A stretch of DNA of 64,000 bases from positions 67,689-131,688 of the forward strand of contig CAZJAJ010000004.1 of NCBI GenBank assembly GCA_964544335.1, written 5' to 3'. Below are positions 6,009-58,237 of the stretch, in pieces. The notes beneath the pieces are model-generated. The model had not been told where the DNA came from. It saw nothing but the letters and a program-made list of their open reading frames with translations, and did not search any database. The stretch's first letter is position 1. Every line of letters begins with the position of its first letter. The translations under genes were made by a program, and so were the position numbers. Source of the DNA: an uncultured Methanosarcinales archaeon. Its GTDB lineage: Archaea > Nanobdellota > Nanobdellia > Woesearchaeales > JABIAG01.

Positions 6009-7759
6009 TGGCCATTCATATTTTACCAGATTCGTTGATTAATAAAATTGCTGCAGGTGAAGTAATTGAACGACCTGCTTCTGTTGTAAAAGAACTTATT
6101 GAAAATTCCATTGATGCTAAGGCAAATAGTATTGAAGTGAGTATTGAACAAGCCGGTCTTGGTTTAATTAAAGTTGTGGATAATGGTGTTGGCATGGATG
6201 AGAAAGATGCAAAGTTGTGTTTTGCTCGTCATGCAACGTCAAAGATTCATGATGGAAAAGATATTTTTGCCATTGGATCTCTTGGATTTCGTGGTGAAGC
6301 ACTTGCAAGTATTTCAGAAGTTGCTCATGTTACTTTGTTAACAAAGGATAGTGCTGATGTGGGAACGATGCTTGTTGTTGAGAGCGGAAAGGTACTCAAG
6401 GAAGAAGCAGCTAGTCGCGCACGCGGGACCACTATTGAAGTAAGAGATTTATTTTTTAATGTTCCTGCACGTAAAGCGTATTTGAAATCTGTTCAGGTTG
6501 AGATGAATCATATTACGAATGTGGTTATGCAATATGCGCTTATTCATCCTGAGATCAATATTCGGTTGTTGTCTAATGGAAAAGAAATCATTCATGCACC
6601 CATTACTGATAATTTTTTGAACAATGTGATGTTTGTGTATGGAACTGAAATTGGAAAAGAATTGATTCCTGTCGATTTTAGTTTAAATAACATTCATGTG
6701 ACGGGTGTTATTTCTCGTCCTTCATATACGAGGGGAGATAGAAGTAATCAATCGTTGTATATTAATTCGCGGCATATCAAACATTCTCTGATTACCGATA
6801 GTGTGTATGATGGGTATGAACGTTTATTATTTACTGGAAGACATCCTGTTTTTGTGTTGAATATTGACATGGATTTTTCTCTTGTTGATGTAAATGTGCA
6901 TCCTGCAAAACGAGAAGTTCGTTTGAAAAATGAGCAGGAACTTGAGATTGTTGTTCGTCAGGCTGTTGCTGATGCACTTTCTGATGCAAATTTAATTACG
7001 CCTGCAACACTTGAGAATGAGACTACGCAGGCACCGATTGCCAATTATACGTTTAGTACCGATACACAAGAGACACTGCAGGTTGCAGAGGAGGTTGAGA
7101 AATATGTGAGTACTCGTCAAGCGCCTGATGTGGTTCAAAAAGAACGTGAACGTGTGTATGTTGGTGATGAAAAAGTGAAACTTGGTCCGTTTAATATTTT
7201 AGGTCAAGTCAATCGTACGTTTGTAATTGCAGAAAATCCACAAGGTCTTTGTATTATTGATCAGCATGCTGCACATGAGCGTGTGAATTATGAAACGTTT
7301 CTTGCAGATCTTGAAGGGAAGAGTTTGAAAATTCAAGAACTCATTACGCCAAAGGTACTTGAAGTAACTCCGGTGCAATTTGGTATTGCACTTGCAAACA
7401 AAGAGCAAATTGAATCACTTGGGTTTAGATTTGAAGAATTTGGAAATAATAGTTTGAAGCTTTCGGCAATTCCACAATTGTTTGATCGTTTGAAGTCAAC
7501 ATTATTTTTGGATATTTTGAATCAGATTGAGTCGTCTGGTGCAAAAGTGATAGATGATGAAGTACTTGATAGAATTATTCGCTTTAGTTGTAAGGCATCT
7601 ATTAAGGCTGGGGAAGAATTGACTACGATTCAGCTGAAGACCTTGCTTGGGCAACTTGAAGGATGTAGTAATCCATATTCCTGTCCGCATGGTCGACCTA
7701 CGCTTATTCAGTTATCGATTGCTGATCTTGAGAAGAAGTTTAAGCGAAGTGGGTGGTAG
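6008..7759 (+). CDS. mutL: DNA mismatch repair endonuclease MutL
   Basis: IAAGEVIERPASVVKELIENSIDA, GFRGEALASI, DVNVHPAKREV, DQHAAHERVNYE, SCK and CPHGRP motifs; 1-bp overlap with mutS. Confidence 0.97.
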   Translation: MAIHILPDSLINKIAAGEVIERPASVVKELIENSIDAKANSIEVSIEQAGLGLIKVVDNGVGMDEKDAKLCFARHATSKIHDGKDIFAIGSLGFRGEALASISEVAHVTLLTKDSADVGTMLVVESGKVLKEEAASRARGTTIEVRDLFFNVPARKAYLKSVQVEMNHITNVVMQYALIHPEINIRLLSNGKEIIHAPITDNFLNNVMFVYGTEIGKELIPVDFSLNNIHVTGVISRPSYTRGDRSNQSLYINSRHIKHSLITDSVYDGYERLLFTGRHPVFVLNIDMDFSLVDVNVHPAKREVRLKNEQELEIVVRQAVADALSDANLITPATLENETTQAPIANYTFSTDTQETLQVAEEVEKYVSTRQAPDVVQKERERVYVGDEKVKLGPFNILGQVNRTFVIAENPQGLCIIDQHAAHERVNYETFLADLEGKSLKIQELITPKVLEVTPVQFGIALANKEQIESLGFRFEEFGNNSLKLSAIPQLFDRLKSTLFLDILNQIESSGAKVIDDEVLDRIIRFSCKASIKAGEELTTIQLKTLLGQLEGCSNPYSCPHGRPTLIQLSIADLEKKFKRSGW

Positions 7760-43962: not shown

Positions 43963-44361
43963 GTTGATGTTTTGATTGATCACTGTTGGGTTCATGCCAA
44001 TTAATTCATCTGTGAAGATAGATTGTGGTATTGGATTGTAAAGATAAATTTTCTTTTTCATTCTCCATGCAGTGTAGATTTCAAGAAATGTTGCGCCACC
44101 AATGTAGTTTTGCTGTCCGTTTTTTTCAAGATTGAGAATTAATGCTGCATCCGTTGGGGCGATGTTTTCTTCGTCTTTTCTGAGCATGGCTTTTTTCCAT
44201 TGTTGATGCTCTTCTTTTGACATGGATTTAAAGCGTTCTTCTTGCATGGGCTCTTCGTAGCTGTTTGGCAGGGTTACTTCGTGCCCGTTTGCTTCAAGTT
44301 GCTCTTTTATTTCTGGAATGTGTTGGTAGAAATGTTTTGAGCAGCCAATGAATATCTTCAT
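43951..44361 (-). CDS. nucleoside 2-deoxyribosyltransferase-like protein
   Basis: MKIFIGCS...DAALILN...YIGGATFLEI...KKIYL pattern. Confidence 0.55.
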   Translation of the reverse strand: MKIFIGCSKHFYQHIPEIKEQLEANGHEVTLPNSYEEPMQEERFKSMSKEEHQQWKKAMLRKDEENIAPTDAALILNLEKNGQQNYIGGATFLEIYTAWRMKKKIYLYNPIPQSIFTDELIGMNPTVINQNINLIQ

Positions 44362-45278
44362 TTTTTCTTAGATTTCTTGAGTTCTTTTTCAAGACCAAGC
44401 TTTTCTAGGAGTTCTTTGTACCTATTTCTAATGGTTACTTCAGTTACGCCTGCAACATCTGCTACTTCTCGCTGTGTTCTTCGCTCGTTGTGAAGAAGTG
44501 CTGAGACATAGAGTGCTGCTGCTGCAATTCCTGTTGGTCCTCGTCCTGAGGTAAGTTCTTTCTTTTGTGCTTGTTCTAGCACTTTGATTGCACGTGATTG
44601 TGCTTCAGGACTGAGCTTTAGTGCACTTGCAAATCTGCTAATGTAATCAACAGGATTTGATGGTAAGATACTAATCCCTAGTTCTCTTGTGATAAAACGG
44701 TATGTTCGTCCGATTTCTTTTTTATCAATATTTGATGCTTCTGAGAGTTCATCAAGTGTTCGTGGCACTTCGTGACGTCTACATGCTGCATAGAGTGCTC
44801 CTGCTGCAACGCTTTCCATTGATCGTCCTCGTACGAGTCCTCGTTGTACTGCAAGGGTGTAGATTCTTGCTGCTTCTTCTTCTACCGAAGCTGGGAGTCT
44901 TAGATAGGAAGATACTCGTTTTAATTCAGATAATGCAAGTTTAAGATTTCGTTCAATAGCCGTTGAGATTCTGTACTGCCATTTTCTTAGACGCATGAAT
45001 TTATTTCGGGATTTTTGTCCCATAGAAAATAAGTCGCCACGTTGACCAATTTCTGTCCCAAGACCTCTGTCATATTGTGTATAGGTCATTGGCGCGCCTG
45101 TTCTTCGCTTTTTATCAGCATCAGCGCTGTCGCCTTCGGTCCATTCCTGACCAAAGTCAACCATTTTTTCTTCTATTACAAGACCGCAGTCTCTACAAGC
45201 GATTTCACCTTTTTCTCGATTAATCGTTAGATTTACACTACTACATTCTGGACACTTTCTAATATATTCTCTACTCAT
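44358..45278 (-). CDS. tfb: transcription initiation factor IIB
   Basis: CPEC/CRDC zinc ribbon, RRTGAP, two cyclin repeats, TEVTIRNRYKEL; start taken at 45278. Confidence 0.97.
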   Translation of the reverse strand: MSREYIRKCPECSSVNLTINREKGEIACRDCGLVIEEKMVDFGQEWTEGDSADADKKRRTGAPMTYTQYDRGLGTEIGQRGDLFSMGQKSRNKFMRLRKWQYRISTAIERNLKLALSELKRVSSYLRLPASVEEEAARIYTLAVQRGLVRGRSMESVAAGALYAACRRHEVPRTLDELSEASNIDKKEIGRTYRFITRELGISILPSNPVDYISRFASALKLSPEAQSRAIKVLEQAQKKELTSGRGPTGIAAAALYVSALLHNERRTQREVADVAGVTEVTIRNRYKELLEKLGLEKELKKSKKK

Positions 45279-45481
45279 ACTGTGCTTCCCCCCAGTTGCA
45301 CCCATAAACTATATATATGAGATCGTGCCTTAGTTTATAAAGATTACGTATTTCTTGGTGTTTTTTTGCCGTTTATGACCCCTATTTCCGATACTACTGG
45401 TAATAGCAGGAGTTTCTATATTGTTGTTTATGTCAATTAGATTTAAATAGGGGAGTTGTCACCCAATGTAAATACGCTTAT

Positions 45482-45821: not shown

Positions 45822-46286
45822 ATGATGAATTACATGGATATTGCAATTGAAGAATCAGTAAAGGGCGTTCATAAAAACCACGGTGGTCCTTTTGGGGCCG
45901 TAATTGTCCATAAGGGAAAGATTATTGCAAAGAACCACAATAGAGTAGTTAAGACAAAAGATCCCACAGCGCACGCTGAAATGCTTGTCATACGAGAAGC
46001 TGCAAAGAAGCTTAAGCGGTTTCATCTTGCTGATTGTGAGTTGTATACTACGTGTGAACCCTGTCCGATGTGTCTTAGCGCTATTTACTGGGCTCGAATT
46101 GAGAAAGTATACTATGGTGCTGGCAAAGAAGATGCAGATGCCATTGGTCTTATTGACAAGGAAATATATAAGATACTTAAGGGAAATCGTTCTTCTAGAA
46201 CTATACAATTAATACAAAAATCAAAGAAAAAATGTGTTGATGTTATGCAAACGTGGGTAAAGAAACTTGATAAAGTAATGTACTAA
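45822..46286 (+). CDS. nucleoside/guanine deaminase (CDA fold)
   Basis: GGPFGAVIV, HAE, PCPMC zinc motifs. Confidence 0.9.
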   Translation: MMNYMDIAIEESVKGVHKNHGGPFGAVIVHKGKIIAKNHNRVVKTKDPTAHAEMLVIREAAKKLKRFHLADCELYTTCEPCPMCLSAIYWARIEKVYYGAGKEDADAIGLIDKEIYKILKGNRSSRTIQLIQKSKKKCVDVMQTWVKKLDKVMY

Positions 46287-46306: not shown

Positions 46307-47149
46307 TCATGTGTTTCTTGAGAAGATGTTTTGTATGAGTTCTACTGCCCCGGGGAGGTTCTGATCATTGTACTGCAAGGCATATCCGTTTTTTTGGGAG
46401 AGTTTACAGGCAAAATCAAAGAATTGCTCTTGTGCTTGTCTATTGTCTGGGACGCCCATGTTTTTTGCAACGTTGTCGTTAATGATGTTATTGAGTATTT
46501 GTGGTGAGGAGAGCTTTGTTAGTAGGGGATTATGTTCTTGTTTATAGGTTGGAAATATGAAGATGAGTTGTTTGTGGGTGCTTGTTTTTTGTGACATGGT
46601 GGGATTTTTGATGTTCTTGTCTTCTTGGTTTCGTATGCGTATGGAGGACATGAAGGGAATGATATCAAATCCATTTTGTGTTTCTTTTATGAAGATCATG
46701 TCATCACACTGAAGGTGAAAGCCTTGCGTGCTCATGAGGGTTGAGAGGGTTGATTTTCCTGACATGGATGGTCCTGAGAAAATGATTGATGCACGTTCAT
46801 TGGTCACTAGGGCTCCATGGATACGTTCGTATCCCATTGATGAGAGAATGCTACCTAATGGGCGTTGAATGATCATGTCTGCATCAAGTAGAAATGGGAG
46901 CTCAAGGTAGTTGCCATACACTTTCTTTTGTTTGAAGTCGATAAATGATTGTTCGAACGGAAAGCCGTTCTCTTCTGTGAAGGCGTTTTCTTTTTTGGTT
47001 GCAAGATAGAAGGTGATGGTAATTTGATCTTGTTGTTGTGTTTGTAGGTCACAGAGATGTTCTTCTATTATGTCAAGTATGGCCTTGCTGTCTGCGAAAA
47101 CTTCTATTTTGAGTCTATTGGTTTTGAATTCCTTGTAGTGCTCAAACAT
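46307..47149 (-). CDS. HPr kinase-like P-loop kinase (lasso/RiPP-associated type)
   Basis: IHGA, GPSMSGKST P-loop, CDDMIFI; 8-bp overlap with the GT4 gene. Confidence 0.8.
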   Translation of the reverse strand: MFEHYKEFKTNRLKIEVFADSKAILDIIEEHLCDLQTQQQDQITITFYLATKKENAFTEENGFPFEQSFIDFKQKKVYGNYLELPFLLDADMIIQRPLGSILSSMGYERIHGALVTNERASIIFSGPSMSGKSTLSTLMSTQGFHLQCDDMIFIKETQNGFDIIPFMSSIRIRNQEDKNIKNPTMSQKTSTHKQLIFIFPTYKQEHNPLLTKLSSPQILNNIINDNVAKNMGVPDNRQAQEQFFDFACKLSQKNGYALQYNDQNLPGAVELIQNIFSRNT

Positions 47150-48440
47150 CTTTTTTCTCCAAAAGTGGTTTTATTTGCTCGTTGTAGATTTTTTCTTCGT
47201 TGTAGCGTCTTCGTATGTCTATTGCCATTTGTTGTGCTTTGTTTTTTTTGAGCTCTTTTATGATGTCTTTTGCAATTTTTTTGTAAAATGATTTATTTTT
47301 CTTGTAGTATTCTGCAAAAAGTTCCTGCGGGTTATGTTCTTGCTTCCAATTTACTCCATATGTACTTCTCATTTTTCCTCTAAGATCTGCGAAAGGATAA
47401 TATAGTGCATGTTCTCCACCCATTTCTTTTAGTGCAGGTGTGTTGTTGTTGAGTATGCAGAGATTACTCATAATTGCTGCTTCTTGGAGAATGAGACTAC
47501 ATGCTTCTGCAGTTGATGGGTGTATGAATACATTTGATAGAGAAAAGAGTTCCTGCATTACTTCTGAACTACACCCTCCCATGAGTTTTTCGTCAACTTC
47601 TGTGGTGAATGTGACGTATGATTCCTCAAGACCTATTTTTTGCATAAGACTTTTTGTTTTTAGATGACCTAGTCCTTCACCCACTCTTCCACCATATGCT
47701 TCTGCAAGTATTACTCTGGCATTTTTTCCTTGATCAACGAGTGCTTTTGTAATGAAAAGAATGTGTTCTATTTGTTTAAATCCTCTATCTAGGCTTGTTC
47801 CAAACACGATGGAAACGTCTGCTTGAAGTATATTACTTTTTTGTACTATTTTTTCAGTTAATGAATGCAGATTAAGATATTCAGGACTCACTCTTGTATT
47901 GTGAACAAATGTGACATTTTTTTTAGGCATATCATACATTTTTGCAAAACCACTCACGTGTTCTTTTGCAACTGTTACAAGAATCGAAGATGGTATTGGG
48001 TTAAAGCGGAGTTCGTGAGGAAATGTTGGGTTTTTTTGATGTTGTTGCGCGGTTGAATGAAACCAGTGTAACCACTTGACTTTTGGGTATTTGTTGATGT
48101 ATTTTCTTATAGCTTTATTCACGTGAAGGAATTTTGGGTGATAGATGAGATCGTGTTCCACAACTACATCTATGTCTTCTAGTTCTTTTTCTAGTGCTTT
48201 GTAAAATTTTTCTACTTGTTTTTCAAACTCCTCTTCTGTTTCTTCTTTAAGATAATCAACGTTAGGTAGTTCTGAAATGTAGGATACATTAGGCAATTTT
48301 TTCCATTGGGGACATGTTTTTGGAAGAATAACGCGAACAGTATGTTCTTTTGAAAACATCCGTATGTGGGATTTTACTACAGAATTCACACTATAATTTG
48401 GGTCCCAAGAATACGTTAGATGAACTATTGCAACATTCAT
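47142..48440 (-). CDS. GT4-family glycosyltransferase
   Basis: MNVAIVH start, HDLIY, HWFHS, PSTAEACSLILQEA (E-x7-E); start taken at 48440. Confidence 0.8.
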   Translation of the reverse strand: MNVAIVHLTYSWDPNYSVNSVVKSHIRMFSKEHTVRVILPKTCPQWKKLPNVSYISELPNVDYLKEETEEEFEKQVEKFYKALEKELEDIDVVVEHDLIYHPKFLHVNKAIRKYINKYPKVKWLHWFHSTAQQHQKNPTFPHELRFNPIPSSILVTVAKEHVSGFAKMYDMPKKNVTFVHNTRVSPEYLNLHSLTEKIVQKSNILQADVSIVFGTSLDRGFKQIEHILFITKALVDQGKNARVILAEAYGGRVGEGLGHLKTKSLMQKIGLEESYVTFTTEVDEKLMGGCSSEVMQELFSLSNVFIHPSTAEACSLILQEAAIMSNLCILNNNTPALKEMGGEHALYYPFADLRGKMRSTYGVNWKQEHNPQELFAEYYKKNKSFYKKIAKDIIKELKKNKAQQMAIDIRRRYNEEKIYNEQIKPLLEKKDV

Positions 48441-48444
48441 ACAT

Positions 48445-48499
48445 GAAGTAAAAAAAAGGAGATTAAAAATATTCCCACACCAGGGTATACCTTTACTCC
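48445..48499 (-). terminator. possible stem-loop / T-tract between precursor and GT4
   Basis: Minus-strand GGAGTAAA pairs with TTTACTTC (one G-T), with an 8-nt T run. Confidence 0.3.
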
Positions 48500-48501
48500 A
48501 C

Positions 48502-48711
48502 CTATGGTGATGTGGTAGGCGGAGATGTAGTAGGTGGAGATGTAGTTCCTGGAGACGTGGTTCCTGGAGACGTGGTTCCTGGAGATGTAGTTCCGCCACC
48601 AGTTGTTCCAGGAGATGTCGTTCCGCCGCCTGTTGTTGCTGTTGCCATAACCACTTCCTTTACTTCACCGTGACTAGTCAATTTTGGTTTTTCGTATGTT
48701 TCTTTGTTCAT
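48502..48711 (-). CDS. RiPP-like precursor peptide: lasso-type leader + (TTSP)x7 core
   Basis: YEKPKLTSHGEVKEVV matches YxxPxLxxxG; 2 bp downstream of the RRE gene; repeat differences sit at synonymous positions in this frame. Confidence 0.85.
   Translation of the reverse strand: MNKETYEKPKLTSHGEVKEVVMATATTGGGTTSPGTTGGGTTSPGTTSPGTTSPGTTSPPTTSPPTTSP
48505..48621 (-). repeat. coding tandem repeat, mostly 15-bp units encoding (G/P)TTSP
   Basis: Units such as ggttcctggagacgt / agttcctggagatgt repeated on the + strand. Confidence 0.9.
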
Positions 48712-48713
48712 AA

Positions 48714-48980
48714 TTATTTTCTCTGTAAAATCTCTTTTGATGTTAATTCCATGATGAGTTCATCCACATCAGTGGTAAGTGTCTTTTCTGCAACTTCAAA
48801 TTGACCCATTAGCTCTTTTGTAATGTCCTGATTATTTTTTCCACTAATTACGTGTTCAAATATTCTTGAAGCAGTCTTATTGAGACTAAAGTGTTTTCCG
48901 CTTTGCGTATTAAGAATTACTGTGTGATCATTCATCGTTCTGTGGATGATATTGTCACTTAATACTAAACTTTCAGTCAT
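48714..48980 (-). CDS. PqqD-family RiPP recognition element (RRE)
   Basis: 88 aa; VILNTQSGKHFSLNKTASRIFE...ITKELMGQFEV...DVDELIMEL. Confidence 0.92.
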   Translation of the reverse strand: MTESLVLSDNIIHRTMNDHTVILNTQSGKHFSLNKTASRIFEHVISGKNNQDITKELMGQFEVAEKTLTTDVDELIMELTSKEILQRK

Positions 48981-49108
48981 TGTGTAATTATGCTAGAAGA
49001 CCTATTTAAATATTTCTATTTGCAAATAGGTGTTCTCGACGTTAATTGCGCATCTAAGACCTTTTAAACCACAAGAATATTTATATTTGTTTTTCACTGC
49101 TCAGTGTT

Positions 49109-50155
49109 ATGGGTTATCGGGGGATTTTAGTTGATGTTATTAAGAACGAGTTTAATGAGGATACTTCTTATTCCCCTACCGAGGTAGATAAGGTTTACCT
49201 GCCTGAAGAGGTAGTAAGAAATAAGTATGTTGTGCGGTTGTTACTTTATTATCTTGACAAGATGAATGTTACTTGCTTATCTTCACCAAGTGTATCATTT
49301 TTACTAAGTCAACAACTGGTCACACACTCTAAGAATGAGATGTATGTACAGGTTACAAAAGAAATTGTCTCTTTGCTCGAATTAAATGGTGTTGAATGCG
49401 TACTCATGAAAGGTATAGCTCTGCTAGATACATTGTATGATGGGGACCTAGATCAGCGCAACATGAGCGATATTGACTTATTTGTTCCGAGTAATACGTT
49501 ACTGTTCTCTAAAGATCTTCTTGTGAAAGAAGGATTTGTTGTTATTGAAGAGCGTGAACATGAGATTGGATTTGTAAGAGATGGTGTTCTAGTAGAATTA
49601 CATTCTGATTTTCATGAAGGATATGTTCCTTTGGATCCATCTACTCACAAGATTGATTTTTTTGGAAATACTATTTCTGTATTTACTCCTGAGGAAATGC
49701 TGCTTCTACTCATTCTTAATTTTTATAGGGACTCTTTTGGAACGTTCTTCTTCTCTCAGTCAGATAAAAGAGTTGGTGATGATATCTTTTTTTCAACGCT
49801 TCCCTTTATTGCAGAGATTAGGCGATTTGTTCACAAAAAACCTATTGATTATGAACGTTTATTGTATCTTACGAAGAAGTGTCCGGTTCCTCATGCTGTG
49901 TTTGGTGTATTGCTTGTGATCAAGGAATATTTTAGAGAAGATATTCCTGATGAATTTTTTGATCATGATAGGCGACTTGTAAGATTAGGTGATGCCATGA
50001 AAGAAGATTCTTTTGCTTCATGTTTTATGTTGCTGCGAAGATATTGTATTATCCACGAGAGTATTCATCTATTGAAATCTCCTCTACTTTTATTTCGTAA
50101 ATGTATTTCATTTTTTTCAAGGTCATCTTTAAGGAGGCATTATGAAGACACATAA
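49109..50155 (+). CDS. nucleotidyltransferase (NTP_transf_5-like)
   Basis: LMKGIAL...RNMSDIDLFV, VELH motifs. Confidence 0.85.
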   Translation: MGYRGILVDVIKNEFNEDTSYSPTEVDKVYLPEEVVRNKYVVRLLLYYLDKMNVTCLSSPSVSFLLSQQLVTHSKNEMYVQVTKEIVSLLELNGVECVLMKGIALLDTLYDGDLDQRNMSDIDLFVPSNTLLFSKDLLVKEGFVVIEEREHEIGFVRDGVLVELHSDFHEGYVPLDPSTHKIDFFGNTISVFTPEEMLLLLILNFYRDSFGTFFFSQSDKRVGDDIFFSTLPFIAEIRRFVHKKPIDYERLLYLTKKCPVPHAVFGVLLVIKEYFREDIPDEFFDHDRRLVRLGDAMKEDSFASCFMLLRRYCIIHESIHLLKSPLLLFRKCISFFSRSSLRRHYEDT

Positions 50156-50615
50156 AGGGGAGTATGCGCTTAAGGTAAGGAGTAATAAGAGCATGAGGCC
50201 TTTACTTCATGTGGGTGATGTGTTGTTGTATTCTCATCGTCCCATTAAACGAGGTGATGTAGTATTATATGCTGCTAAAAATAAGGTGGTTGTTCACAGA
50301 GTGCTTAGTTTTACTATGCGACATGGAGAGCAATCCTTATTGTGTAAGGGTGACAGTATGGCTTTTGAAGACCAGTGGATTATTCCAAGAAAGTGTATTT
50401 TGGGTGTTTTAGATACTATCGTTCGTGGTAAGAAGGTTATTTCACTTCATTCGGGAAAATTTCTTTATGTGAATCGTATCCTTTACATTCTTTCAAGAGT
50501 GCACTTTTGTTTTCGCTCAATGCTGTCAAGACGTTTGAGAAAAAAATATGTTAAACCACTCCATAAGATTAATTTGTTTTTTTTAAAATGTGTAGAAGTT
50601 ATTTTTAGACTATAA
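50142..50615 (+). CDS. S24/S26-family peptidase
   Basis: SMRPLL, GDVVLY, VVHRVL, KGD; overlaps the nucleotidyltransferase gene by 14 bp. Confidence 0.85.
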   Translation: MKTHKGEYALKVRSNKSMRPLLHVGDVLLYSHRPIKRGDVVLYAAKNKVVVHRVLSFTMRHGEQSLLCKGDSMAFEDQWIIPRKCILGVLDTIVRGKKVISLHSGKFLYVNRILYILSRVHFCFRSMLSRRLRKKYVKPLHKINLFFLKCVEVIFRL

Positions 50616-52253
50616 CTGTCGCTTTATTTTTGATTGTGCTACTTTTTTAATCTCATCATAGGTGTTTTGTGTTATATTTTCAATTAATTCTTCTTTTTCT
50701 TTAGTGAATGTGTAATTTGATTTTTTATGTCCTACCCAATTTCTTCCTTCTATTTGTTGGAGGATGTTCTCTTCTTTTCCATGAGGATCTATTGAGAGAA
50801 ATTTATAGAGAGCTTTTAGTACATTTTTTTGAGGATCAATGAGATCTTCATATTCTATTATGAATGTATTGTTTGGATAAAGTAGAGAAAATTCCAACAT
50901 GCAGTTGTTAACTTCTTTCCAATCCTCTGAAAGTAATTTGGTTGATCTCTGTACTTCTGCCATTTTGAATGACCTTCGATAGCTTTCAATTACTGCTTTT
51001 GGATTTCTTACCAAAAATACAAACTTTGCTTGCGGATAGAGTGAGATTAGAAATTCGAATGTCTTTCTATCTCTGTCCCCAAACCGTACTTCCTTATACC
51101 CCCAGTATTTTTTTTTGAGAGGATTAAACAATGATTCAATGAAAGTTCTACATGAACGTTTAATGTGATCATCGCCAAACCAATTTGTCCATGCCTGCCA
51201 TACACTAGGATTCTTTAATTGTGCAGTTGCTTCTTTTAGGTTATTGAGTGGTTTCTTTTTCAGTGTAAGATTTTGTTCTTCATAGAGTGTATAATATATT
51301 TTAGTGAGGTGATGCATTATGTCTCTGTTTTCACCCCAGATGGTTATGTCAGAATGAGCATTTAGTATCCGTTGCAATAATGTTGTCCCACTTCTTGCCA
51401 TACCATACATGAAGAGAGGAGATTCTGGGTTAGGTACGTGTGTTTTAATGGATACAAGGATTGATTTTGCTTTTTCTTTTATTTTTAGAGGAATTGTTTT
51501 CTTTTTTTTCAATTTTAATGTGGTGTATGTGTTGTATAGCAGGTACATTTCTTTAGAGTAAATTGGGTGTATTGAATGTGCTTTTTTTGAAAGAAGTATA
51601 TCTGTTTTTTCTTTTCTACTTTTTACGTAGACGTTTCTGTGTCTTCCGTTGCATGCTGTGAGGTCAATCCCGTTTTGTTTGAGAATGTCTCCGACCATCA
51701 TATCTTCTGTTGATGATTCGGGAATTATTTTTTCGTATTTTTCTTTTTTGAGTGGTACGCGTTCTCCATACCACCAAGGATTTCCTATTCCTTTTTGAAA
51801 ATCATAGGTTGCAAGTGTATCTACTGCTTTTTTGCTTAGCATATAACAGCCACCTGATGCCCATGTAATTCTTCTTTTTTCTTTTCGTCTGCTGTTATTT
51901 ACAATGACACCATAATAGTCACATTTTGGAATTGTATCTTCTAACCATTCATTTGGAAGAAAGAGCGTGTCGTCATCAATTTTGAAGACATAATCAAATT
52001 TTTTGTTTTTTGAGAGGTATTTTGCTAGTTGGTGTGTTTTTTTTGCAAGGTCTTGATAGGTGTCTTCACATTCTACAAAGAGCCTTTTTTCTTTTTCATC
52101 ATAATGTTCTTTTTTTGCACCTTCTACAAAGAACCATTCTACGTTATCTGGGATTAATTTTGCCCATGTTTCTCTTACTGCTTTTTGTCTTGTTTCTCTG
52201 TGTGCCTTGCAAGAGGTGATTACGAAAATGACTTTTTTATTCTTTAATTGCAT
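50610..52253 (-). CDS. GT31-like glycosyltransferase fused to a sulfotransferase
   Basis: N-half: RETW, EDTYQDLAKK, KIDDD, ASGGCYMLS, EDMMVG; C-half: GMARSGTT, WGYKE, VRNP...S, YEDL. Confidence 0.82.
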   Translation of the reverse strand: MQLKNKKVIFVITSCKAHRETRQKAVRETWAKLIPDNVEWFFVEGAKKEHYDEKEKRLFVECEDTYQDLAKKTHQLAKYLSKNKKFDYVFKIDDDTLFLPNEWLEDTIPKCDYYGVIVNNSRRKEKRRITWASGGCYMLSKKAVDTLATYDFQKGIGNPWWYGERVPLKKEKYEKIIPESSTEDMMVGDILKQNGIDLTACNGRHRNVYVKSRKEKTDILLSKKAHSIHPIYSKEMYLLYNTYTTLKLKKKKTIPLKIKEKAKSILVSIKTHVPNPESPLFMYGMARSGTTLLQRILNAHSDITIWGENRDIMHHLTKIYYTLYEEQNLTLKKKPLNNLKEATAQLKNPSVWQAWTNWFGDDHIKRSCRTFIESLFNPLKKKYWGYKEVRFGDRDRKTFEFLISLYPQAKFVFLVRNPKAVIESYRRSFKMAEVQRSTKLLSEDWKEVNNCMLEFSLLYPNNTFIIEYEDLIDPQKNVLKALYKFLSIDPHGKEENILQQIEGRNWVGHKKSNYTFTKEKEELIENITQNTYDEIKKVAQSKIKRQL

Positions 52254-52865: not shown

Positions 52866-52915
52866 TTATTCTTTGTATACAATAAGTTTAAAAGTGATTT
52901 TACTTGTTATGTAGT

Positions 52916-54595
52916 ATGCTCATGACCATTTTAGGATTGTTATTGTTACTGCTTCCTTTGCTGTGCTTTAAACTGCATAAAGCTCTTGGATGTATTGTAG
53001 TTGTGCAACTTGCTATTGGTCTTATTACGCAATTATTTGGTGTGTTTACGTATCCTGTTGTGTTTGGGCTGAATCTGGTTGTTGCATTGTTTTTAGTGAG
53101 GAAAGTCAGGTTTAGGATTAATTGGACGGTTATTGCTGTTGCTGCTATTTTGTTGTTTTCGTTTTATGGCGTGCATTATAATTACACTGGTGATGCAGTT
53201 TTTTCAGGTCAGCAACTTGATACTGTTGAAGGGATGCACTATCCTCTGCCCTATGCTTCGGATGAGTGGTATGGTGCATCAATTGCACAGCATGCTATTG
53301 AAACAGGAGGATTGCCGCTTGATCAACCGCTTCGAGAAGATATCTTCTTTATTAATTTGCAAATTGCATTTCATTCTCTGCTTGCTGAAGTTTTTATGCT
53401 TCTTGATCTTGATGTGGTGTGGAATTTTGGGGTTGCTGTTATGTTGTTTTCCACTGCCATTTGTCTTGTTGTGTATGCATTGTTGATGTTGTTTGGCGTT
53501 AGACCATCTGCTGCCATCTTTGGTTCGTTATTCACTTCGTATGTTGCGTCAAGCGGAAATATATTCACGTTATGGAACGTTATTCCTGCAAGCGTTGGTA
53601 TTTTGACGTTATTGCTTGCGTATTGTTTCTTAGTTGAAAAGAATACTCGTTACTTTTTCTTATTTGGTTTTCTGACATTAATCTTTTATCCTCCTTTTGG
53701 TGTGTTTTTACTTCCTGCAGCGTTTGTTGGACTTTCTAAAGAGTATCGTATGCGTTTTATGTATGTGGTGCTTGGTAGCGGTGTAGGTCTATTTCTTGTT
53801 GCTCTTCTTCTTGCTCCAAGATTGCAATCTGCATGGTTGTTTGTTTGGAATAAAGTATACTATCTCTCCTACACGCCCATTGGGATTGCGTATTTATTTC
53901 CCTGGGTAATCATTCCTCCTCTTTGTTTGGTGTTTGTGCTCTTTTCTTATGGGGAACTCAAGAAACGAACATGGTTTATGTACACTCTTGGTGTTGGCCT
54001 TGCGTATTGGTTGGTGTATCATTTTACGATTCAGTTCTTTATTATTAGTCAAGAACGAGTGGTGTATGTTGCTGCAGTATTACTTGTTATTGCGTGTTCA
54101 CTTGGTTTTCATCGTCTGAGTAATTTATGGAAGAAATATGATCGTTATGTTGTGGTTGGGCTGTTACTTCTTTTTGCTGTGTTTTCTTTTACCTATACAG
54201 AGGATGATCGGTTTAGAGACATGCCACTTATTGCTCACGAGAATGGAAATGTATATCGTTATGTACCTGGACCTACTGCTAGCGCCTATTTTGATGATAG
54301 TGATGCTGATTTATTTTCCACACTTGAACCATCAGTATTTTTATCAGACCCGTGGAAATCAACGGTTATTTCCATTGCTCTTGGGCATACTCCCACAACA
54401 TTAAAATCAGGTACGTTTGGGTATAAGGAAGAAAAATATCCTTATTTTTTGAATCAGAATTGTGATGGGAAGAAGAAGATACTTGACCGAGATGATATTG
54501 CATATGTGTATGGTGCACCTGAAGAGTGTTCTTTCTTAAGGTTGATAGGTATTTCAGATGAAGGATATCATTTGTATGTGTATGATGAAAATTAG
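52916..54595 (+). CDS. polytopic membrane protein, GT-C-like glycosyltransferase
   Basis: More than 10 TM, acidic YASDEWYG motif in first external loop, soluble C-terminal domain with SDPW. Confidence 0.6.
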   Translation: MLMTILGLLLLLLPLLCFKLHKALGCIVVVQLAIGLITQLFGVFTYPVVFGLNLVVALFLVRKVRFRINWTVIAVAAILLFSFYGVHYNYTGDAVFSGQQLDTVEGMHYPLPYASDEWYGASIAQHAIETGGLPLDQPLREDIFFINLQIAFHSLLAEVFMLLDLDVVWNFGVAVMLFSTAICLVVYALLMLFGVRPSAAIFGSLFTSYVASSGNIFTLWNVIPASVGILTLLLAYCFLVEKNTRYFFLFGFLTLIFYPPFGVFLLPAAFVGLSKEYRMRFMYVVLGSGVGLFLVALLLAPRLQSAWLFVWNKVYYLSYTPIGIAYLFPWVIIPPLCLVFVLFSYGELKKRTWFMYTLGVGLAYWLVYHFTIQFFIISQERVVYVAAVLLVIACSLGFHRLSNLWKKYDRYVVVGLLLLFAVFSFTYTEDDRFRDMPLIAHENGNVYRYVPGPTASAYFDDSDADLFSTLEPSVFLSDPWKSTVISIALGHTPTTLKSGTFGYKEEKYPYFLNQNCDGKKKILDRDDIAYVYGAPEECSFLRLIGISDEGYHLYVYDEN

Positions 54596-55629
54596 TTATT
54601 CTTTTTACTTTTGATACCTAGTGTTGAGAGCATGAATGCTGAGAAAATGGTTTGCATACCTATAAGTCCGAATGTGACCGTGAGCAATGGATTTGTGGTG
54701 AAATAGTATACGCTTGATAGGATGATGATTGCTCCAACAATTGCTACTTTTTCTATGCTTAGATGTTTGAATAAGTGTTCTAATCTGTTGTCTTTTTGAT
54801 TGAGATAGTTGTGCATATAGATTTTTGAGAACACAAAAAAGAAGAGGAGTTGGTATCCAAAGAGTGTTGACATGGCCATTGCTGCGCTTAAGAGTCTTCC
54901 TGGAAAATAGATAAATCCAACAATTCCAAAGAGCATGAAGTAGAGTGCGGGCAGTAGGAAAAGAATATCTGGTGTGTAAAGCAACATGTAGCGCAGATGT
55001 CTCCATCCGTCTCTAAAAGAGGATAGTTTTGATTCTCCTATGCGCGGATTGTAGGCAATTGGTATTTGTTTTGTTTTTAGTTTGTGTTTTGCTACTGCTG
55101 CAACCATTTCTGTTGCATATTCCATGCCTGTTGTTTGTAGGTTTAATGTATCATATGCTTCTTTTGTAAATGCACGCATACCGCAGTGCACATCTCTTAC
55201 GTTTGTTTTCATAAACCATCGTGCTAGTGTTGAGAGTACTGGGTTACCGATGTATTTGTGATGCCAAGGCATTGCTTTTTTGTGCATGCGTCCTGAGAAT
55301 CTATCTCCTATGACAAAATCATATCCTTTTTGTAGTGCGTGTATGAACTGTGGTATTTTATTAAAGTCGTATGTGTTATCACAATCCATCATGATAATGT
55401 ATTTACCCTTTGCTGCTTCTATTCCGTGTATGAGTGCATTACCATAGCCGTCTTGATCGTGTTTTATTACTCTTGCACCTAATTTTTTTGCAATTATTGG
55501 ACTATTATCTGTTGAACTGTCTGAAAGAATTATTTCATGAGGTATTTTTGCTAAAATGTTTTGTATTTTTTTAATGCATACTGGAACTGCTTTTTCTTCG
55601 TTTTGACAGGGTAGAACGATTGAGATCAC
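54592..55629 (-). CDS. GT2 glycosyltransferase, dolichol-phosphate mannose synthase-like
   Basis: SIVLPCQNEE, DSSTD, GYGNAL, MDCD, GDRF, DVHCGMRAF; C-terminal TMs. Confidence 0.9.
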   Translation of the reverse strand: MISIVLPCQNEEKAVPVCIKKIQNILAKIPHEIILSDSSTDNSPIIAKKLGARVIKHDQDGYGNALIHGIEAAKGKYIIMMDCDNTYDFNKIPQFIHALQKGYDFVIGDRFSGRMHKKAMPWHHKYIGNPVLSTLARWFMKTNVRDVHCGMRAFTKEAYDTLNLQTTGMEYATEMVAAVAKHKLKTKQIPIAYNPRIGESKLSSFRDGWRHLRYMLLYTPDILFLLPALYFMLFGIVGFIYFPGRLLSAAMAMSTLFGYQLLFFFVFSKIYMHNYLNQKDNRLEHLFKHLSIEKVAIVGAIIILSSVYYFTTNPLLTVTFGLIGMQTIFSAFMLSTLGIKSKKNN

Positions 55630-55767: not shown

Positions 55768-56736
55768 GTGTTAAAAAAACTAACTCAACGAGCCCTGCCG
55801 TATGTTGCGGGATTAGGATTTCTTTTAACGAGTAGCGCGTATGCACAAGATACTTCTTCTGATGCAGTCATTGCAAGAGTTGTTGTTCCAAAACCACTTA
55901 TTGTTGAACCACCAAAAGAAGGAAGGCCAGATCGGCTCACGAGTAGGCTTCTTGGAGCAAATTTAGATGGTGTTGAAGCAAGTCCCTTATATGATATTAT
56001 GCATGAACAACTGGATGAGCATGAATTAGTCAATTATAGAATTTCACCTGATTATAATTCCCTTACTTTTGATTTACCTATTGTAGGTAGAGTTGCTTCT
56101 GTTCCTATTGATGAATTAAATCACAAAATGGAAGAGAGCATGAAAGGTATGCGAATGGGGGACAATTATAATGATGGATGGAGTAATCCTGTTCGAGATG
56201 AAATCAGAGAAGAGTATCAAAATGATTTAGAAGGCATTGGTAAGGATGTACTTTCTGACTGGGGGAAGGAATTCAAACCTATGGCCATGAATATTTTAGA
56301 AGAAAGTTCTTTCTTTAATGCACTTAGTCTTGGTAATCGAGGTTTTTTTGCGAATAAATTTAAAGTGCATGGGACTGAAAAAGATGAAGAGAAAGGGTAT
56401 GGACGTAGTTCCTCATCTAACTATGAAATTGATAGATTTAGTACGGGTTTTTCTGTTGGTGGAAGCATTGGTAATCCCTCAGTTGGTGTGAAAGTTCGCA
56501 CCTCATATTTATTTGAAGTAAATCTTGATGGAGAATATGAGTTAAAAGATGGACTAAAAACTGAAGCCATCGTACCTCTTTATCGGGGTCGTACACGAGA
56601 AGGTACTATTGATCTTAGTGTGTATGGTTCATATGAAGAAGAAGATGGTTCTTCTGCAGGTATTCGTCTAGATGCTCCTCTTGCACCCATTACTGAGCGG
56701 ATTGGTCGCATTTTTACGCGTAAGAAAGGTAAATGA
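55768..56736 (+). CDS. putative secreted protein
   Basis: Signal peptide ending AYA-Q; beta-strand-like C-terminal half. Confidence 0.6.
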   Translation: MLKKLTQRALPYVAGLGFLLTSSAYAQDTSSDAVIARVVVPKPLIVEPPKEGRPDRLTSRLLGANLDGVEASPLYDIMHEQLDEHELVNYRISPDYNSLTFDLPIVGRVASVPIDELNHKMEESMKGMRMGDNYNDGWSNPVRDEIREEYQNDLEGIGKDVLSDWGKEFKPMAMNILEESSFFNALSLGNRGFFANKFKVHGTEKDEEKGYGRSSSSNYEIDRFSTGFSVGGSIGNPSVGVKVRTSYLFEVNLDGEYELKDGLKTEAIVPLYRGRTREGTIDLSVYGSYEEEDGSSAGIRLDAPLAPITERIGRIFTRKKGK

Positions 56737-56788
56737 GGTGATTGTTTGCACCACTGATTTTTATGTAGTGTAATGAATTCTTGGGGTT

Positions 56789-58237
56789 ATGGTAAATGAT
56801 AGAGCACTTGGTTTACATCCAGATCATGTTGGATTTTTAGTTGGACATAATTTTTACTCTCCTTCACATGCAGCTGAAGGATTTATTGGAGCAACCCCTG
56901 CCAACAATTTACGTGGTGTTGTTGGTCTTGAAGAAAGACTACATGGCGTTGTTGAGAGGATTTTAGATGATGATAAGAGAGCAGAGGAAACACCTGTGCT
57001 TTCTTATTTAGTTAGAAAAATAGATGAACAAGGTGAACGTTTTGATTTAAATGCTATTCGTGCATTGGTAAAGAAAGCATATGGTACGAGTAAACTTATT
57101 GATCAAGAAGCAGTGACTGTTGATCGAATTCCTAAAGAGAGTATGCGTGGTCAGTTTGTTGGCACGGTGAAGACTCGACGAAGTAAGTTTGATCGTACTC
57201 ATCAAGATCATACCATGAGCGTGTATGATGTGTTAGTTGATGATGCTAGTGATGGTCAGTACATTTCTTTTGCAGGTGGAACTGAACATGCACAAACACA
57301 TTTGAGACGTGGTTCACATTGGTCACGAGGTATTTCACATGAATCTGACTTTATTGACTTGTTAAGAAGGAATGGGAATACGACATATGATGAGGGCATT
57401 CATGTTGTTGATTATGCAAGTAGTGCATTTTTAACCTATTTACATCAAATGCAGAGCGTTGGACTTCTTGGAAGCAAAGGCGATATTTCTGATGATGCTT
57501 TTGTGTTTATGCCATTTGATTTTAGTAAACGAGATGATCTTGCTTTTGAAGTACTTGCTATGCGGTATGCTTCTGTAAAAGATATTAAGGGATCTGGTTC
57601 ATCTCTTAGTGGTAAGGCGACTCTTATTGATGTTGATCGGCACATGATGGGCAAGAGAGGATTTGTGCAACCTTTTATGAAAGAGTTGTATGCGTCTGGT
57701 GGGGCTACACGAAGTGTACTTCCCAAAGGCAAACGTCTTGATAATCATACGTGGGCCATTATGCAAGCATGGGAAGAGCATGCGTTTGGTGAAGGAAGAG
57801 ACTTTAGAGGGTATTCGCTTGAATTTCCTGGATGCGAGTATGAAACGACATCAATTGTATTTGATTTTCATAATGGGAAGCATGATGTGAGTATGCGGCT
57901 ACTTGTTGATGATCACTTTGGTCTTCCTATGGTGATGTACAAAAGTTTTGTTCGAGATGAGTATTATGGTACATGGAGACATAGTGAGAAGGATCCTGCT
58001 AATCGTGTCAATATATCAGATGACTTACGTACACGTGATTGGGTATATCGACATCATGAAGATGTTGATTGGCATTCTGGAAGAGAAAATGTGAGTAGTA
58101 TCTTTCAACCAACTGATGCAATTCTTGAGCGTGCGAGTGAACTTACGCGTGCTGGAGGTAAACGTGGCGTTAGTGCAGGAGAATTTAGAAAACGATATGT
58201 GAATAATTATTTTAGAATAAAGAATAAAGTAAAATGA
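56789..58237 (+). CDS. hypothetical protein
   Basis: 482-aa ORF with host-like codon pattern; no family recognised. Confidence 0.65.
   Translation: MVNDRALGLHPDHVGFLVGHNFYSPSHAAEGFIGATPANNLRGVVGLEERLHGVVERILDDDKRAEETPVLSYLVRKIDEQGERFDLNAIRALVKKAYGTSKLIDQEAVTVDRIPKESMRGQFVGTVKTRRSKFDRTHQDHTMSVYDVLVDDASDGQYISFAGGTEHAQTHLRRGSHWSRGISHESDFIDLLRRNGNTTYDEGIHVVDYASSAFLTYLHQMQSVGLLGSKGDISDDAFVFMPFDFSKRDDLAFEVLAMRYASVKDIKGSGSSLSGKATLIDVDRHMMGKRGFVQPFMKELYASGGATRSVLPKGKRLDNHTWAIMQAWEEHAFGEGRDFRGYSLEFPGCEYETTSIVFDFHNGKHDVSMRLLVDDHFGLPMVMYKSFVRDEYYGTWRHSEKDPANRVNISDDLRTRDWVYRHHEDVDWHSGRENVSSIFQPTDAILERASELTRAGGKRGVSAGEFRKRYVNNYFRIKNKVK

Follow-up and report, generated by a model that had tools for sequence, protein, structure and literature searches.

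The window analysed here is a stretch of 64,000 nucleotides (nt) of contig CAZJAJ010000004.1 (positions 67,689–131,688) from an uncultured Methanosarcinales archaeon. It contains a short gene on the minus strand, at 48502–48711, for a precursor peptide in which a leader of the lasso-peptide type precedes a core of threonine-threonine-serine-proline (TTSP) repeats. The host is identified as an archaeon by the genes for transcription factor B (TFB; 44358–45305) and aIF2-gamma and by an intron-bearing tRNA-Lys, together with a GC content of about 38%. The genes on the minus strand follow each other in the order RRE/PqqD, precursor, glycosyltransferase (GT), and HprK-like kinase, where RRE is the recognition element of RiPPs, peptides that are made by ribosomes and modified after translation. 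The features of the precursor and of the gene cluster around it are the following.

48981–49108, no strand: divergent intergenic region, A/T-rich, with a TATA-like element TTTAAATA, read from the sequence, about 22–29 nt upstream of the ATG of the RRE gene
48714–48980, minus strand: discrete RRE of the PqqD family, lasso-B1 type, 88 residues (Pfam PqqD, 1.4e-11)
48502–48711, minus strand: precursor peptide gene, 69 codons and a TAG stop codon (48502–48504)
48649–48711, minus strand: leader region, residues 1–21 (MNKETYEKPKLTSHGEVKEVV), with the boundary taken from a positional alignment to leaders of linear polyphosphorylated peptides (LPPs)
48667–48696, minus strand: predicted RRE-binding motif, Y6-E-K-P9-K-L11-T-S-H-G15 (YxxPxLxxxG)
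48505–48648, minus strand: core region, residues 22–69, MATATTGGG...(TTSP)x7
48505–48630, minus strand: tandem array of 15-nt, five-codon G/P-TTSP units
48441–48501, minus strand: spacer 3' of the precursor stop codon, with a short hairpin and T5 and T8 runs
47142–48440, minus strand: predicted GT-B-fold, GT4-like glycosyltransferase, 432 residues, with the EX7E motif E312...E320 and a weak match to Pfam Glyco_trans_1_4
46307–47149, minus strand: HprK-like kinase, 280 residues, overlapping the GT stop codon by 8 nt
49109–50155, plus strand: NTP_transf_5 (PF14907) protein with a nucleotidyltransferase fold, LppN/PsmN-like (Pfam, 3e-23)
50142–50615, plus strand: Sec11/SipW-type (S26B) signal-peptidase-like protease, putative leader peptidase, 157 residues, without an N-terminal membrane anchor
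50610–52253, minus strand: fusion of a GT31 (Galactosyl_T/Fringe-like) domain and a Sulfotransfer_3 domain (Pfam), 547 residues
43255–43962, plus strand: Sulfotransfer_2 protein (Pfam, 1e-11), 2.3 kb beyond the kinase, with the TFB gene and a deaminase gene in between

Precursor gene, leader, and repeat array

The minus-strand translation of 48502–48711 is MNKETYEKPKLTSHGEVKEVVMATATTGGGTTSPGTTGGGTTSPGTTSPGTTSPGTTSPPTTSPPTTSP*, a peptide of 69 residues, whereas the plus-strand reading of the same segment is nonsense. The coordinates and the translation that an earlier, sequence-only reading of this DNA had given are thereby borne out, with the gene on the minus strand. The ATG of the precursor is positioned 2 nt past the stop codon of the upstream PqqD/RRE gene, and the precursor is translationally coupled to this RRE of the lasso-B1 type. 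Past residue 21, the peptide consists of M, A, T, G, S, and P only, with no D or E, no C, and no aromatic residue. The 48 residues of the core (22–69) include 19 Thr and 7 Ser, and contain exactly seven TTSP units. Tandem Repeats Finder detects the array at 48509–48641 with periods of 15, 30, and 45 nt.

The seven 12-nt segments encoding TTSP vary in columns 3, 6, 9, and 12 only. Each of the 42 pairwise differences among them is at the third codon position, with positions 1 and 2 free of any, which upholds the argument for coding from third codon positions that had been made from the sequence alone. If any four of the 12 columns could vary by chance, the probability that these would be precisely the wobble columns is 1/495. 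The restriction of the differences to codon position 3 indicates that the peptide sequence is conserved, beyond the repetition of the DNA itself. A core built as a tandem array is present in the window precursor only, among six precursors of the family described below.

A search of a database of 5.8 billion proteins with the whole precursor gave zero matches, not even the query itself. Therefore, gene calling seems never to have yielded the precursor in complete form. A shortened version of 52 codons is called on one Logan contig. The sole other contig that carries the RRE of the window (L016) is identical in sequence and stops within the repeat array. The repeat also holds other frames open, namely an open reading frame (ORF) on the plus strand at 48512–48673 and a GTG-extended, 485-residue form of the next gene, the GT. 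The start of the GT homologues corresponds to MNVAIV (48440), outside the repeat. The ORF at 48502–48711 on the minus strand is a real gene. The spacer between the precursor and the GT (48441–48501) is a possible archaeal oligo-T attenuator; the fold of its hairpin has a z-score of -1.6, which is not significant, and a scan for terminators of the bacterial type raised no flag.

The leader alone (30 residues) matches the NCBIfam model NF033521 (lasso_leader_L3) with 20.9 bits, above the cut-off of 19, in agreement with the lasso-type leader recognized earlier. The Thr found at position -2 of lasso leaders is indeed absent, as the leader ends in ...EVVM. The YxxPxLxxxG-type motif is kept in 6/6 precursors of the family, and its YxxP part is the contact to the RRE in LPP and lasso systems (PMC13381572). 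When the leader of the window is overlaid on the leaders of LPPs, Y matches Y, P matches P, L falls on V, S, H, V, and A are matched by the same residues, and T falls on S. In this overlay, the cleavage falls after V21, between EVV and MAT, and Thr24 takes the position of Ser3 of LPPs. An alternative cleavage site, between VMA and T, agrees with the -3/-1 rule of signal peptidases; nevertheless, the rule gives no single consistent cleavage site over the six precursors.

Enzymes of the cluster and related loci

The RRE of the window matches the NCBIfam model lasso_PqqD_Strm with an E-value of 4e-14, under its cut-off. The profile of the RRE family matches TfuB1 (2e-10) and TbiB1 (2.5e-9), both of the lasso B1 type, far better than true PqqD, and matches LppB, the RRE of LPP clusters, with an E-value of 0.006. 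From these matches, the RRE of the window is probably positioned outside the LppB clade. Its invariant residues N34 and D71 align with N33 and D70 of LppB, which hold the Pro kink of the leader and form hydrogen bonds to its Tyr (PMC13381572). The alignment of these residues fits a leader of the Tyr-type, YxxP.

The kinase has sub-threshold matches to Hpr_kinase_C, HprK_rel_A, and ScmC, and the profile of its family matches the HPr kinase structures 3tqf, 1ko7, and 1jb1. The P-loop G-x-GKST and the pair D149-D150 are invariant in the family. In the pseudomycoidin kinase PsmK, mutation of the predicted metal-binding pair D158/D159 led to the loss of phosphorylation. Proteins of this kind are rare: an exhaustive phmmer search of 1.84 billion representatives gave 19 matches below 1e-10, a word-indexed protein search returned the query alone, and profile searches of the contigs of species-representative genomes with a GT alignment and with an alignment of three kinases found no relatives. 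The genome of the window and its close relatives did not turn up in that set of species representatives with either the GT or the three-kinase patterns. Among 40 more distant relatives of the kinase, 39 match HprK_rel_A (best E = 1.7e-20), and one of these matches reaches 35.2 bits, where the cut-off is 200. The HPr-rel-A (TIGR04352) and SynChlorMet (ScmC/ScmD; TIGR04249) systems are similar in that they pair an HprK-like with a PqqD-like protein. Identity with these systems is rejected, as the bit scores of the window's kinase, 35.8 and 22.6, are below the respective cut-offs of 200 and 125.

The GT shares 42% identity with the N-terminal half of a GT-kinase fusion (P0002) and 37% with the GT of locus L011, and its residues E312 and E320 are invariant. 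All of the top Foldseek matches of its AlphaFold 2 (AF2) model are GT4 or GT20 enzymes, with TM-scores of about 0.3. The model was built on an alignment of two sequences and has a predicted local distance difference test (pLDDT) score of 60, and the GT is assigned from it to the GT-B/GT4-like fold class only. The genes of the GT and the kinase overlap by 8 nt both in the window and in L011, and in the P0003 locus the GT is directly upstream of the kinase with an overlap of a few nt. In P0002 (L008:1711–3873), the GT4-like GT and the HprK-like kinase form one protein of 720 residues, which is a Rosetta-stone link between the two. When metagenomes were scanned with the GT alignment, a single distant locus of virus-like character (L003) came up, which has no RRE or kinase. 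A protein of 102 residues in this locus (L003:8176–8484) has the C-terminal sequence ...ATSTTSTSTSTSTSTSTSSSTSTSSTTTA and is encoded 1.5 kb upstream of the GT homologue (L003:9968–11269, 27% identical). The pair may hint that the GT family of the window acts on S/T-repeat tails.

The peptidase scores 53.5 against the TIGR02228 model, with a cut-off of 51.85, and matches human SEC11A in the PDB with an E-value of 4e-5, with the catalytic motifs SMxP, VHRV, and KGD aligned. Residues H52, R53, K69, and D71 are invariant over five loci, and the Ser is kept in 4/5. The SpI-like (signal peptidase I-like) peptidase at L004:1370–1789 has a Cys (GRCMEP) in the position of the catalytic Ser of the others (S-M-x-P); this may be a thiol variant, or else an artefact of the alignment or of the start site. 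The gene of the peptidase is 1.2 kb away from that of the RRE. Homologues of the NTP_transf_5 protein are encoded in L006, L008, and L011. The GT31-Sulfotransfer_3 fusion is a probable tailoring enzyme, judging by its domains, and the Sulfotransfer_2 gene is a possible accessory gene. None of the 50 window ORFs scanned with Pfam encodes a lasso cyclase (Asn-synthetase-like), a B2-type protease, or an ABC (ATP-binding cassette) exporter.

Related loci were retrieved as the contigs of kinase homologues, which served as anchors. They were counted as five kinds of locus, bacterial and probably archaeal, and the gene content of the contigs is as follows.

P0002 locus (L008): GT-kinase fusion, S24-like peptidase, NTP_transf_5, ABC-2 transporter
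P0003 locus: GT14 (Branch), RRE, ORF of 41 residues, GT, kinase, S24-like peptidase
L011/L012 (bacterial metagenome-assembled genome, GCA_030153525.1): PMT_2, NTP_transf_5, and ABC genes; RRE, GT, and kinase; S26-like peptidase; two precursors
L009: GT6, two sulfotransferases, S26-like peptidase, Sulfotransfer_2-RRE fusion, free RRE, precursor, kinase
L006: NTP_transf_5, precursor, RRE, kinase
L010: precursor, kinase

In pairwise BLAST comparisons, homology between the loci is confirmed for each enzyme type, namely the RREs, kinases, GTs, peptidases, and NTP-transferases. The sequence-only reading had proposed looking beside RREs for short ORFs that share the leader, and this search was positive: leader-bearing short ORFs are present at four other kinase/RRE loci (L006, L009, L010, and L011). 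A scan of all frames of all loci for the leader motif gave matches in the expected places only, plus one unrelated match in L003. The six precursors share the leader Y-x-x-P-x-[LI]-x-x-x-G-x-[LIV]...[VIY]-M/C, which is followed by variable cores.

Window: MNKET-YEKPKLTSHG-EVKEVVM-ATATTGGG...
L006: ...ES-YKKPKLSRHG-KINEVIM-TGTPPPGGGAPPPAL
L009: ...VK-YERPEIKSRG-TIKQMYM-GSTGSPTISPTAAPTV
L010: ...DE-YAEPRLISHG-KINLMIC-QGSQFSKDDGW...
L011a: ...KD-YKKPKLSKKG-SLKKNLVM-APIKTLPALEPI
L011b: ...KG-YKKPKLSKKG-TLKKSLVM-KELQTMAY

The cores are rich in S, T, P, and G in 3/6 precursors. A conserved leader joined to a hypervariable core is as expected for a RiPP, and both the gene set and the leader recur over independent loci. 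One of the related loci contains an additional fusion: at L009:7155–7994, a Sulfotransfer_2 domain is joined to a PqqD/RRE domain, with a second, free RRE adjacent to it. The fusion implies a leader-guided peptide sulfotransferase; no description of an RRE-guided peptide sulfotransferase was found in the RRE literature consulted.

Relation to known systems and proposed pathway

The gene set resembles that of LPPs, encoded by lppA/K/B/S/D/N in Bacillota such as Paenibacillus alginolyticus (Popov et al., Nat Commun 2026;17:6633, PMC13381572). LPPs were first described in May 2026 and were reported to be restricted to Bacillota. Their clusters encode an archaeal-type SpI-like peptidase LppS, the discrete RRE LppB, the HprK-like kinase LppK, the NTP-transferase LppN, and an MsbA-like exporter, and lie within polysaccharide loci that contain many unrelated GTs. 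The precursors have 35–200 residues and the motif YxxPxVLxHQxIxFETxxS. LppK attaches up to four phosphates to Ser3 of the core only and rejects the S3T variant, whereas LppS cuts after T-1, requires LppB, and favours the phosphorylated precursor. In a heterologous host, LppN was silent, and the final product and role of LPPs are unknown (all PMC13381572).

The window shares with LPP clusters a SipW/archaeal-type SpI-like peptidase, a discrete lasso-like RRE that keeps the Asn and Asp for the Pro kink and the Tyr, an HprK-like kinase, and a PF14907 NTP-transferase. Its precursor is likewise short, with YxxPx[VL] in its N-terminal part and a variable core that in the family is often G/P-rich and of low complexity. 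The surroundings are GT-rich, and neither the related loci nor the ORFs scanned across the 64 kb encode a cyclase or any Asn_synthase-like or Transglut_core3 protein. By contrast, the host of the window is archaeal, the related loci belong to non-Bacillota bacteria, and the leader of the window lacks HQxIxFET and Ser3. There is no MsbA-like exporter among the 50 ORFs scanned, while L008 and L011 carry pairs of ABC_tran and ABC2_membrane genes. The coupling or fusion of a GT4-like GT to the kinase and the presence of sulfotransferases, including one with an RRE fusion, are further differences. In BLAST comparisons, the peptidase of the window matches clusters 3 (1e-10) and 1 (5e-10) of the sequence similarity network (SSN) of Popov et al., and the peptidases of the family are closest to cluster 3. 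That cluster contains SpI-like peptidases of Schekmanbacteria, Desantisbacteria, and Acidobacteria that are co-localized with 'other' RREs; it is present in a supplementary table only and was left unanalysed (PMC13381572 Supplementary Data 1). The published LPP dataset contains no precursor of the TTSP type or of the KPKL type.

Other known systems are similar in parts. Paeninodin and pseudomycoidin of Bacillota are made with the HprK-like kinases PadeK and PsmK with a catalytic DD, the PF14907 protein PsmN, a B1-type RRE, and a [Y/W]xxPxL leader, and sulfotransferase genes have been noted in some of those clusters. PsmK phosphorylates the C-terminal Ser of pseudomycoidin, and PsmN is required for the attachment of one or two hexoses to that phosphate. 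However, both are lasso peptides with a B2 protease and a cyclase, phosphorylated at a C-terminal Ser, whereas the core in the window has a C-terminal Pro and no precursor of the family has a C-terminal Ser. SipW of Bacillus subtilis, which processes TasA and TapA, is similarly an S26B peptidase with Ser, His, and Asp that serves few substrates. The peptidase of the window differs from it in having no N-terminal membrane anchor, and the leader of its substrate is hydrophilic and not a Sec signal peptide. By analogy to LppS, the peptidase of the window would be RRE-dependent.

Tandem repeats of Thr, Ser, and Pro are known from the PTS domains of mucins, the proteophosphoglycans of Leishmania, and Ser-rich-repeat adhesins. 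As in mucin-type systems, the repeats of the window are encoded beside an enzyme of GT31, the core-1 family, and sulfotransferases, and the related loci encode GT14 (P0003) and GT6 (L009); the pair of kinase and NTP-transferase is a putative maker of a Ser/Thr-phosphate-sugar linkage. Unlike in these systems, the product of the window is a leader-guided prokaryotic peptide of 69 residues, and the likeness is one of composition and gene context.

The peptide is probably the precursor of a leader-guided, non-cyclized RiPP, and the pathway a divergent archaeal relative of the LPP system. The system most likely works in the manner of LPPs, though outside the published LPP clade, as indicated by the null result with the LPP leaders given below, the E-value of the match to LppB, the peptidases of SSN cluster 3, the lack of an MsbA-like exporter, and the lack of a matching published precursor. 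We infer the modified residues, the modifying agents, and the order of steps in this core as follows. The discrete RRE (48714–48980) would bind the YEKP-K-L motif in the leader. The HprK-like kinase (46307–47149) would then phosphorylate a hydroxyl residue close to the core N-terminus, probably in iterated rounds; Thr24 of 'MAT', in the position of Ser3 of LPPs, is the candidate. The PF14907 NTP-transferase, the kinase-coupled GT4-like GT, or both may place a sugar on the phosphate or on Ser/Thr, and the GT31-sulfotransferase fusion and the Sulfotransfer_2 protein may extend and sulfate the glycan. The (TTSP)7 array would possibly offer many more acceptor sites. Finally, the Sec11/SipW-type peptidase (50142–50615) would cut the leader off the RRE-bound, modified precursor.

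Several observations weigh against this assignment. LppK rejects Thr at position 3, where the core of the window has Thr, and LppN was inactive in the heterologous host (PMC13381572). A hidden Markov model (HMM) of 12 leaders of Bacillota LPPs did not recognize any of the six precursors of the family (E > 1 for all), against a background of 1049 window ORFs. The RRE is much nearer to generic lasso B1 proteins (TfuB1/TbiB1) than to LppB. No exporter is encoded near the cluster by the 50 ORFs scanned, the structural model of the GT is of low confidence (pLDDT 60), and neither a precursor nor an RRE was found on the incomplete 10-kb contig of L008.

Dense O-modification of the TTSP repeats, the mucin-like multi-site acceptor of the sequence-only reading, is plausible. 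The case for O-glycosylation and sulfation is a contextual one, based on the coupling of the GT to the kinase and their fusion in another locus, the GT31-sulfotransferase fusion of the window, and the RRE-sulfotransferase fusion in a related locus. The main arguments for placing glycosylation and sulfation in the pathway, and not in neighbouring envelope loci, are the GT-kinase fusion, the conserved overlap of the GT and kinase genes, and the L009 sulfotransferase-RRE fusion. A tentative extension of the pathway, with more doubt than confidence attached to it, is that in this archaeon and in scattered uncultured bacteria a lasso-derived leader and RRE steer a kinase, an NTP-transferase, GT4-like and GT31/GT14/GT6-type enzymes, and sulfotransferases onto a Thr/Ser/Pro repeat. 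The product would be a 'mini-mucin' or a proteophosphoglycan with many phosphates, sugars, and sulfates.

The main rival explanation, less likely than not but a serious one, is that an LPP-like pathway polyphosphorylates a single residue near the N-terminus of the core, perhaps with glycosylation of the phosphate, while the repeats form an unmodified Pro/Thr-rich spacer or tail and the GT31-sulfotransferase and the other GTs serve the cell envelope. The restriction to Ser3 of LppK, from the only relatives characterized so far, the location of LPP clusters in GT-rich polysaccharide loci, the additional glycan genes near the cluster of the window (a GT2 and a multi-transmembrane protein), and the few hydroxyl residues in other cores of the family, for example APIKTLPALEPI, would all fit this arrangement. 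However, GT and kinase are translationally coupled in both the window and L011, overlap by a few nt in P0003, and are fused in P0002; the sulfotransferase fused to an RRE in L009 is, hence, leader-guided; and the wobble-only variation indicates selection for the exact TTSP peptide. A decaying remnant, in which slipped-strand expansion of the 15-nt repeat overran the core and the precursor fell out of use, would explain why the core by far exceeds those of the other five family members in length and repetitiveness. It is improbable, as the frame is intact over 69 codons, the differences between the repeats are all synonymous, the coupling to the RRE is intact, and the partner enzymes all retain their catalytic motifs.

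Still less credence is due to a true lasso precursor served by a cyclase and a B2 protease from another part of the genome. The leader exceeds the cut-off of the lasso leader model, the RRE is lasso-B1-like, and a generic Transglut_core protein is encoded 34 kb off, but the core offers no Asp or Glu for a macrolactam, so its composition effectively refutes this explanation, and the sequence-only reading was right in calling a lasso ring impossible. Moreover, there is no Asn-synthase-like protein among the window ORFs scanned and no B2 protease or cyclase in the related loci, and the distant transglutaminase-like ORF matches PF01841 only. That the ORF is an accident of repetitive DNA and not a gene deserves just as little weight. 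Low-complexity repeats do leave several frames open, and the ORF is missing from the protein database; nevertheless, a chance origin is effectively refuted. A homologous leader beside the same enzymes at four independent loci, the match to a curated lasso-leader model, the wobble-only variation, and the start of GT homologues at 48440 instead of within the repeat all oppose it.

Surroundings of the cluster and implications

Beyond the GT31-sulfotransferase gene, the window encodes a protein of 563 residues (52904–54595, plus strand) with about 13 predicted helices and zero Pfam matches. Beside it, at 54592–55629 on the minus strand, is a GT2 with C-terminal membrane helices that resembles polyprenyl-phosphate-sugar synthases. 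L011 has a PMT_2 (GT-C) gene on the corresponding side of its cluster; a BLAST comparison of this protein with the 563-residue protein was negative. The assignment of the latter to GT-C/PMT was not made, as its AF2 model has a pLDDT of 42, which makes it unusable, and the BLAST result was negative. The adjacent proteins of 322 and 482 residues at 55768–58237 (plus strand) have no family match, and the first has an N-terminus like that of a signal peptide.

A gene of the dCMP/cytidine-deaminase family adjoins the cluster in the window (45822–46286, plus strand) and in the bacterial L011 (3357–3818), which is possibly a coincidence. The Transglut_core (PF01841) protein at 14421–15056 (plus strand), 34 kb from the cluster, is encoded among housekeeping genes. 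It has no match to Transglut_core3, no RRE or cyclase is encoded nearby, and it is not of the lasso B2 type. The segments 3576–7759, 15935–17308, and 2847–2944 contain bacterial-type MutS and MutL, glucose-6-phosphate dehydrogenase, and a 98-nt, presumably intron-containing tRNA-Lys(UUU), respectively. The segment 18638–25933 (plus strand) encodes BatA/VWA/DUF7408, DUF7502, a MoxR-type AAA_3 ATPase, and DUF58, a MoxR-VWA module that resembles an aerotolerance operon.

The enzyme logic of the pathway is already known from the description of LPPs in 2026. New here are the archaeal host and the non-Bacillota branch, the distinct leader, the coupling of the GT to the kinase, the RRE-guided sulfotransferase, and the tandem TTSP core. 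The window and the related loci suggest that LPP-like enzymatic logic is present in Archaea and in further bacterial lineages. The GT coupled or fused to the kinase and the sulfotransferase fused to the RRE suggest that glycosylation and sulfation are genuine steps of the pathway, and the precursor of the window suggests that the core is able to expand into a mucin-like (TTSP)7 array. These loci offer concrete hypotheses, open to testing, on the late steps that are still missing from LPP biosynthesis, as well as a compact set of substrates and enzymes for the leader-directed phospho-, glyco-, and sulfo-engineering of peptides. If the product is a mini-mucin, it would reveal the final chemistry of the LPP class. 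The enzymes would then constitute the first leader-guided machinery for multi-site O-glycosylation and O-sulfation, and would be candidate enzymes for O-glycosylation in Archaea.

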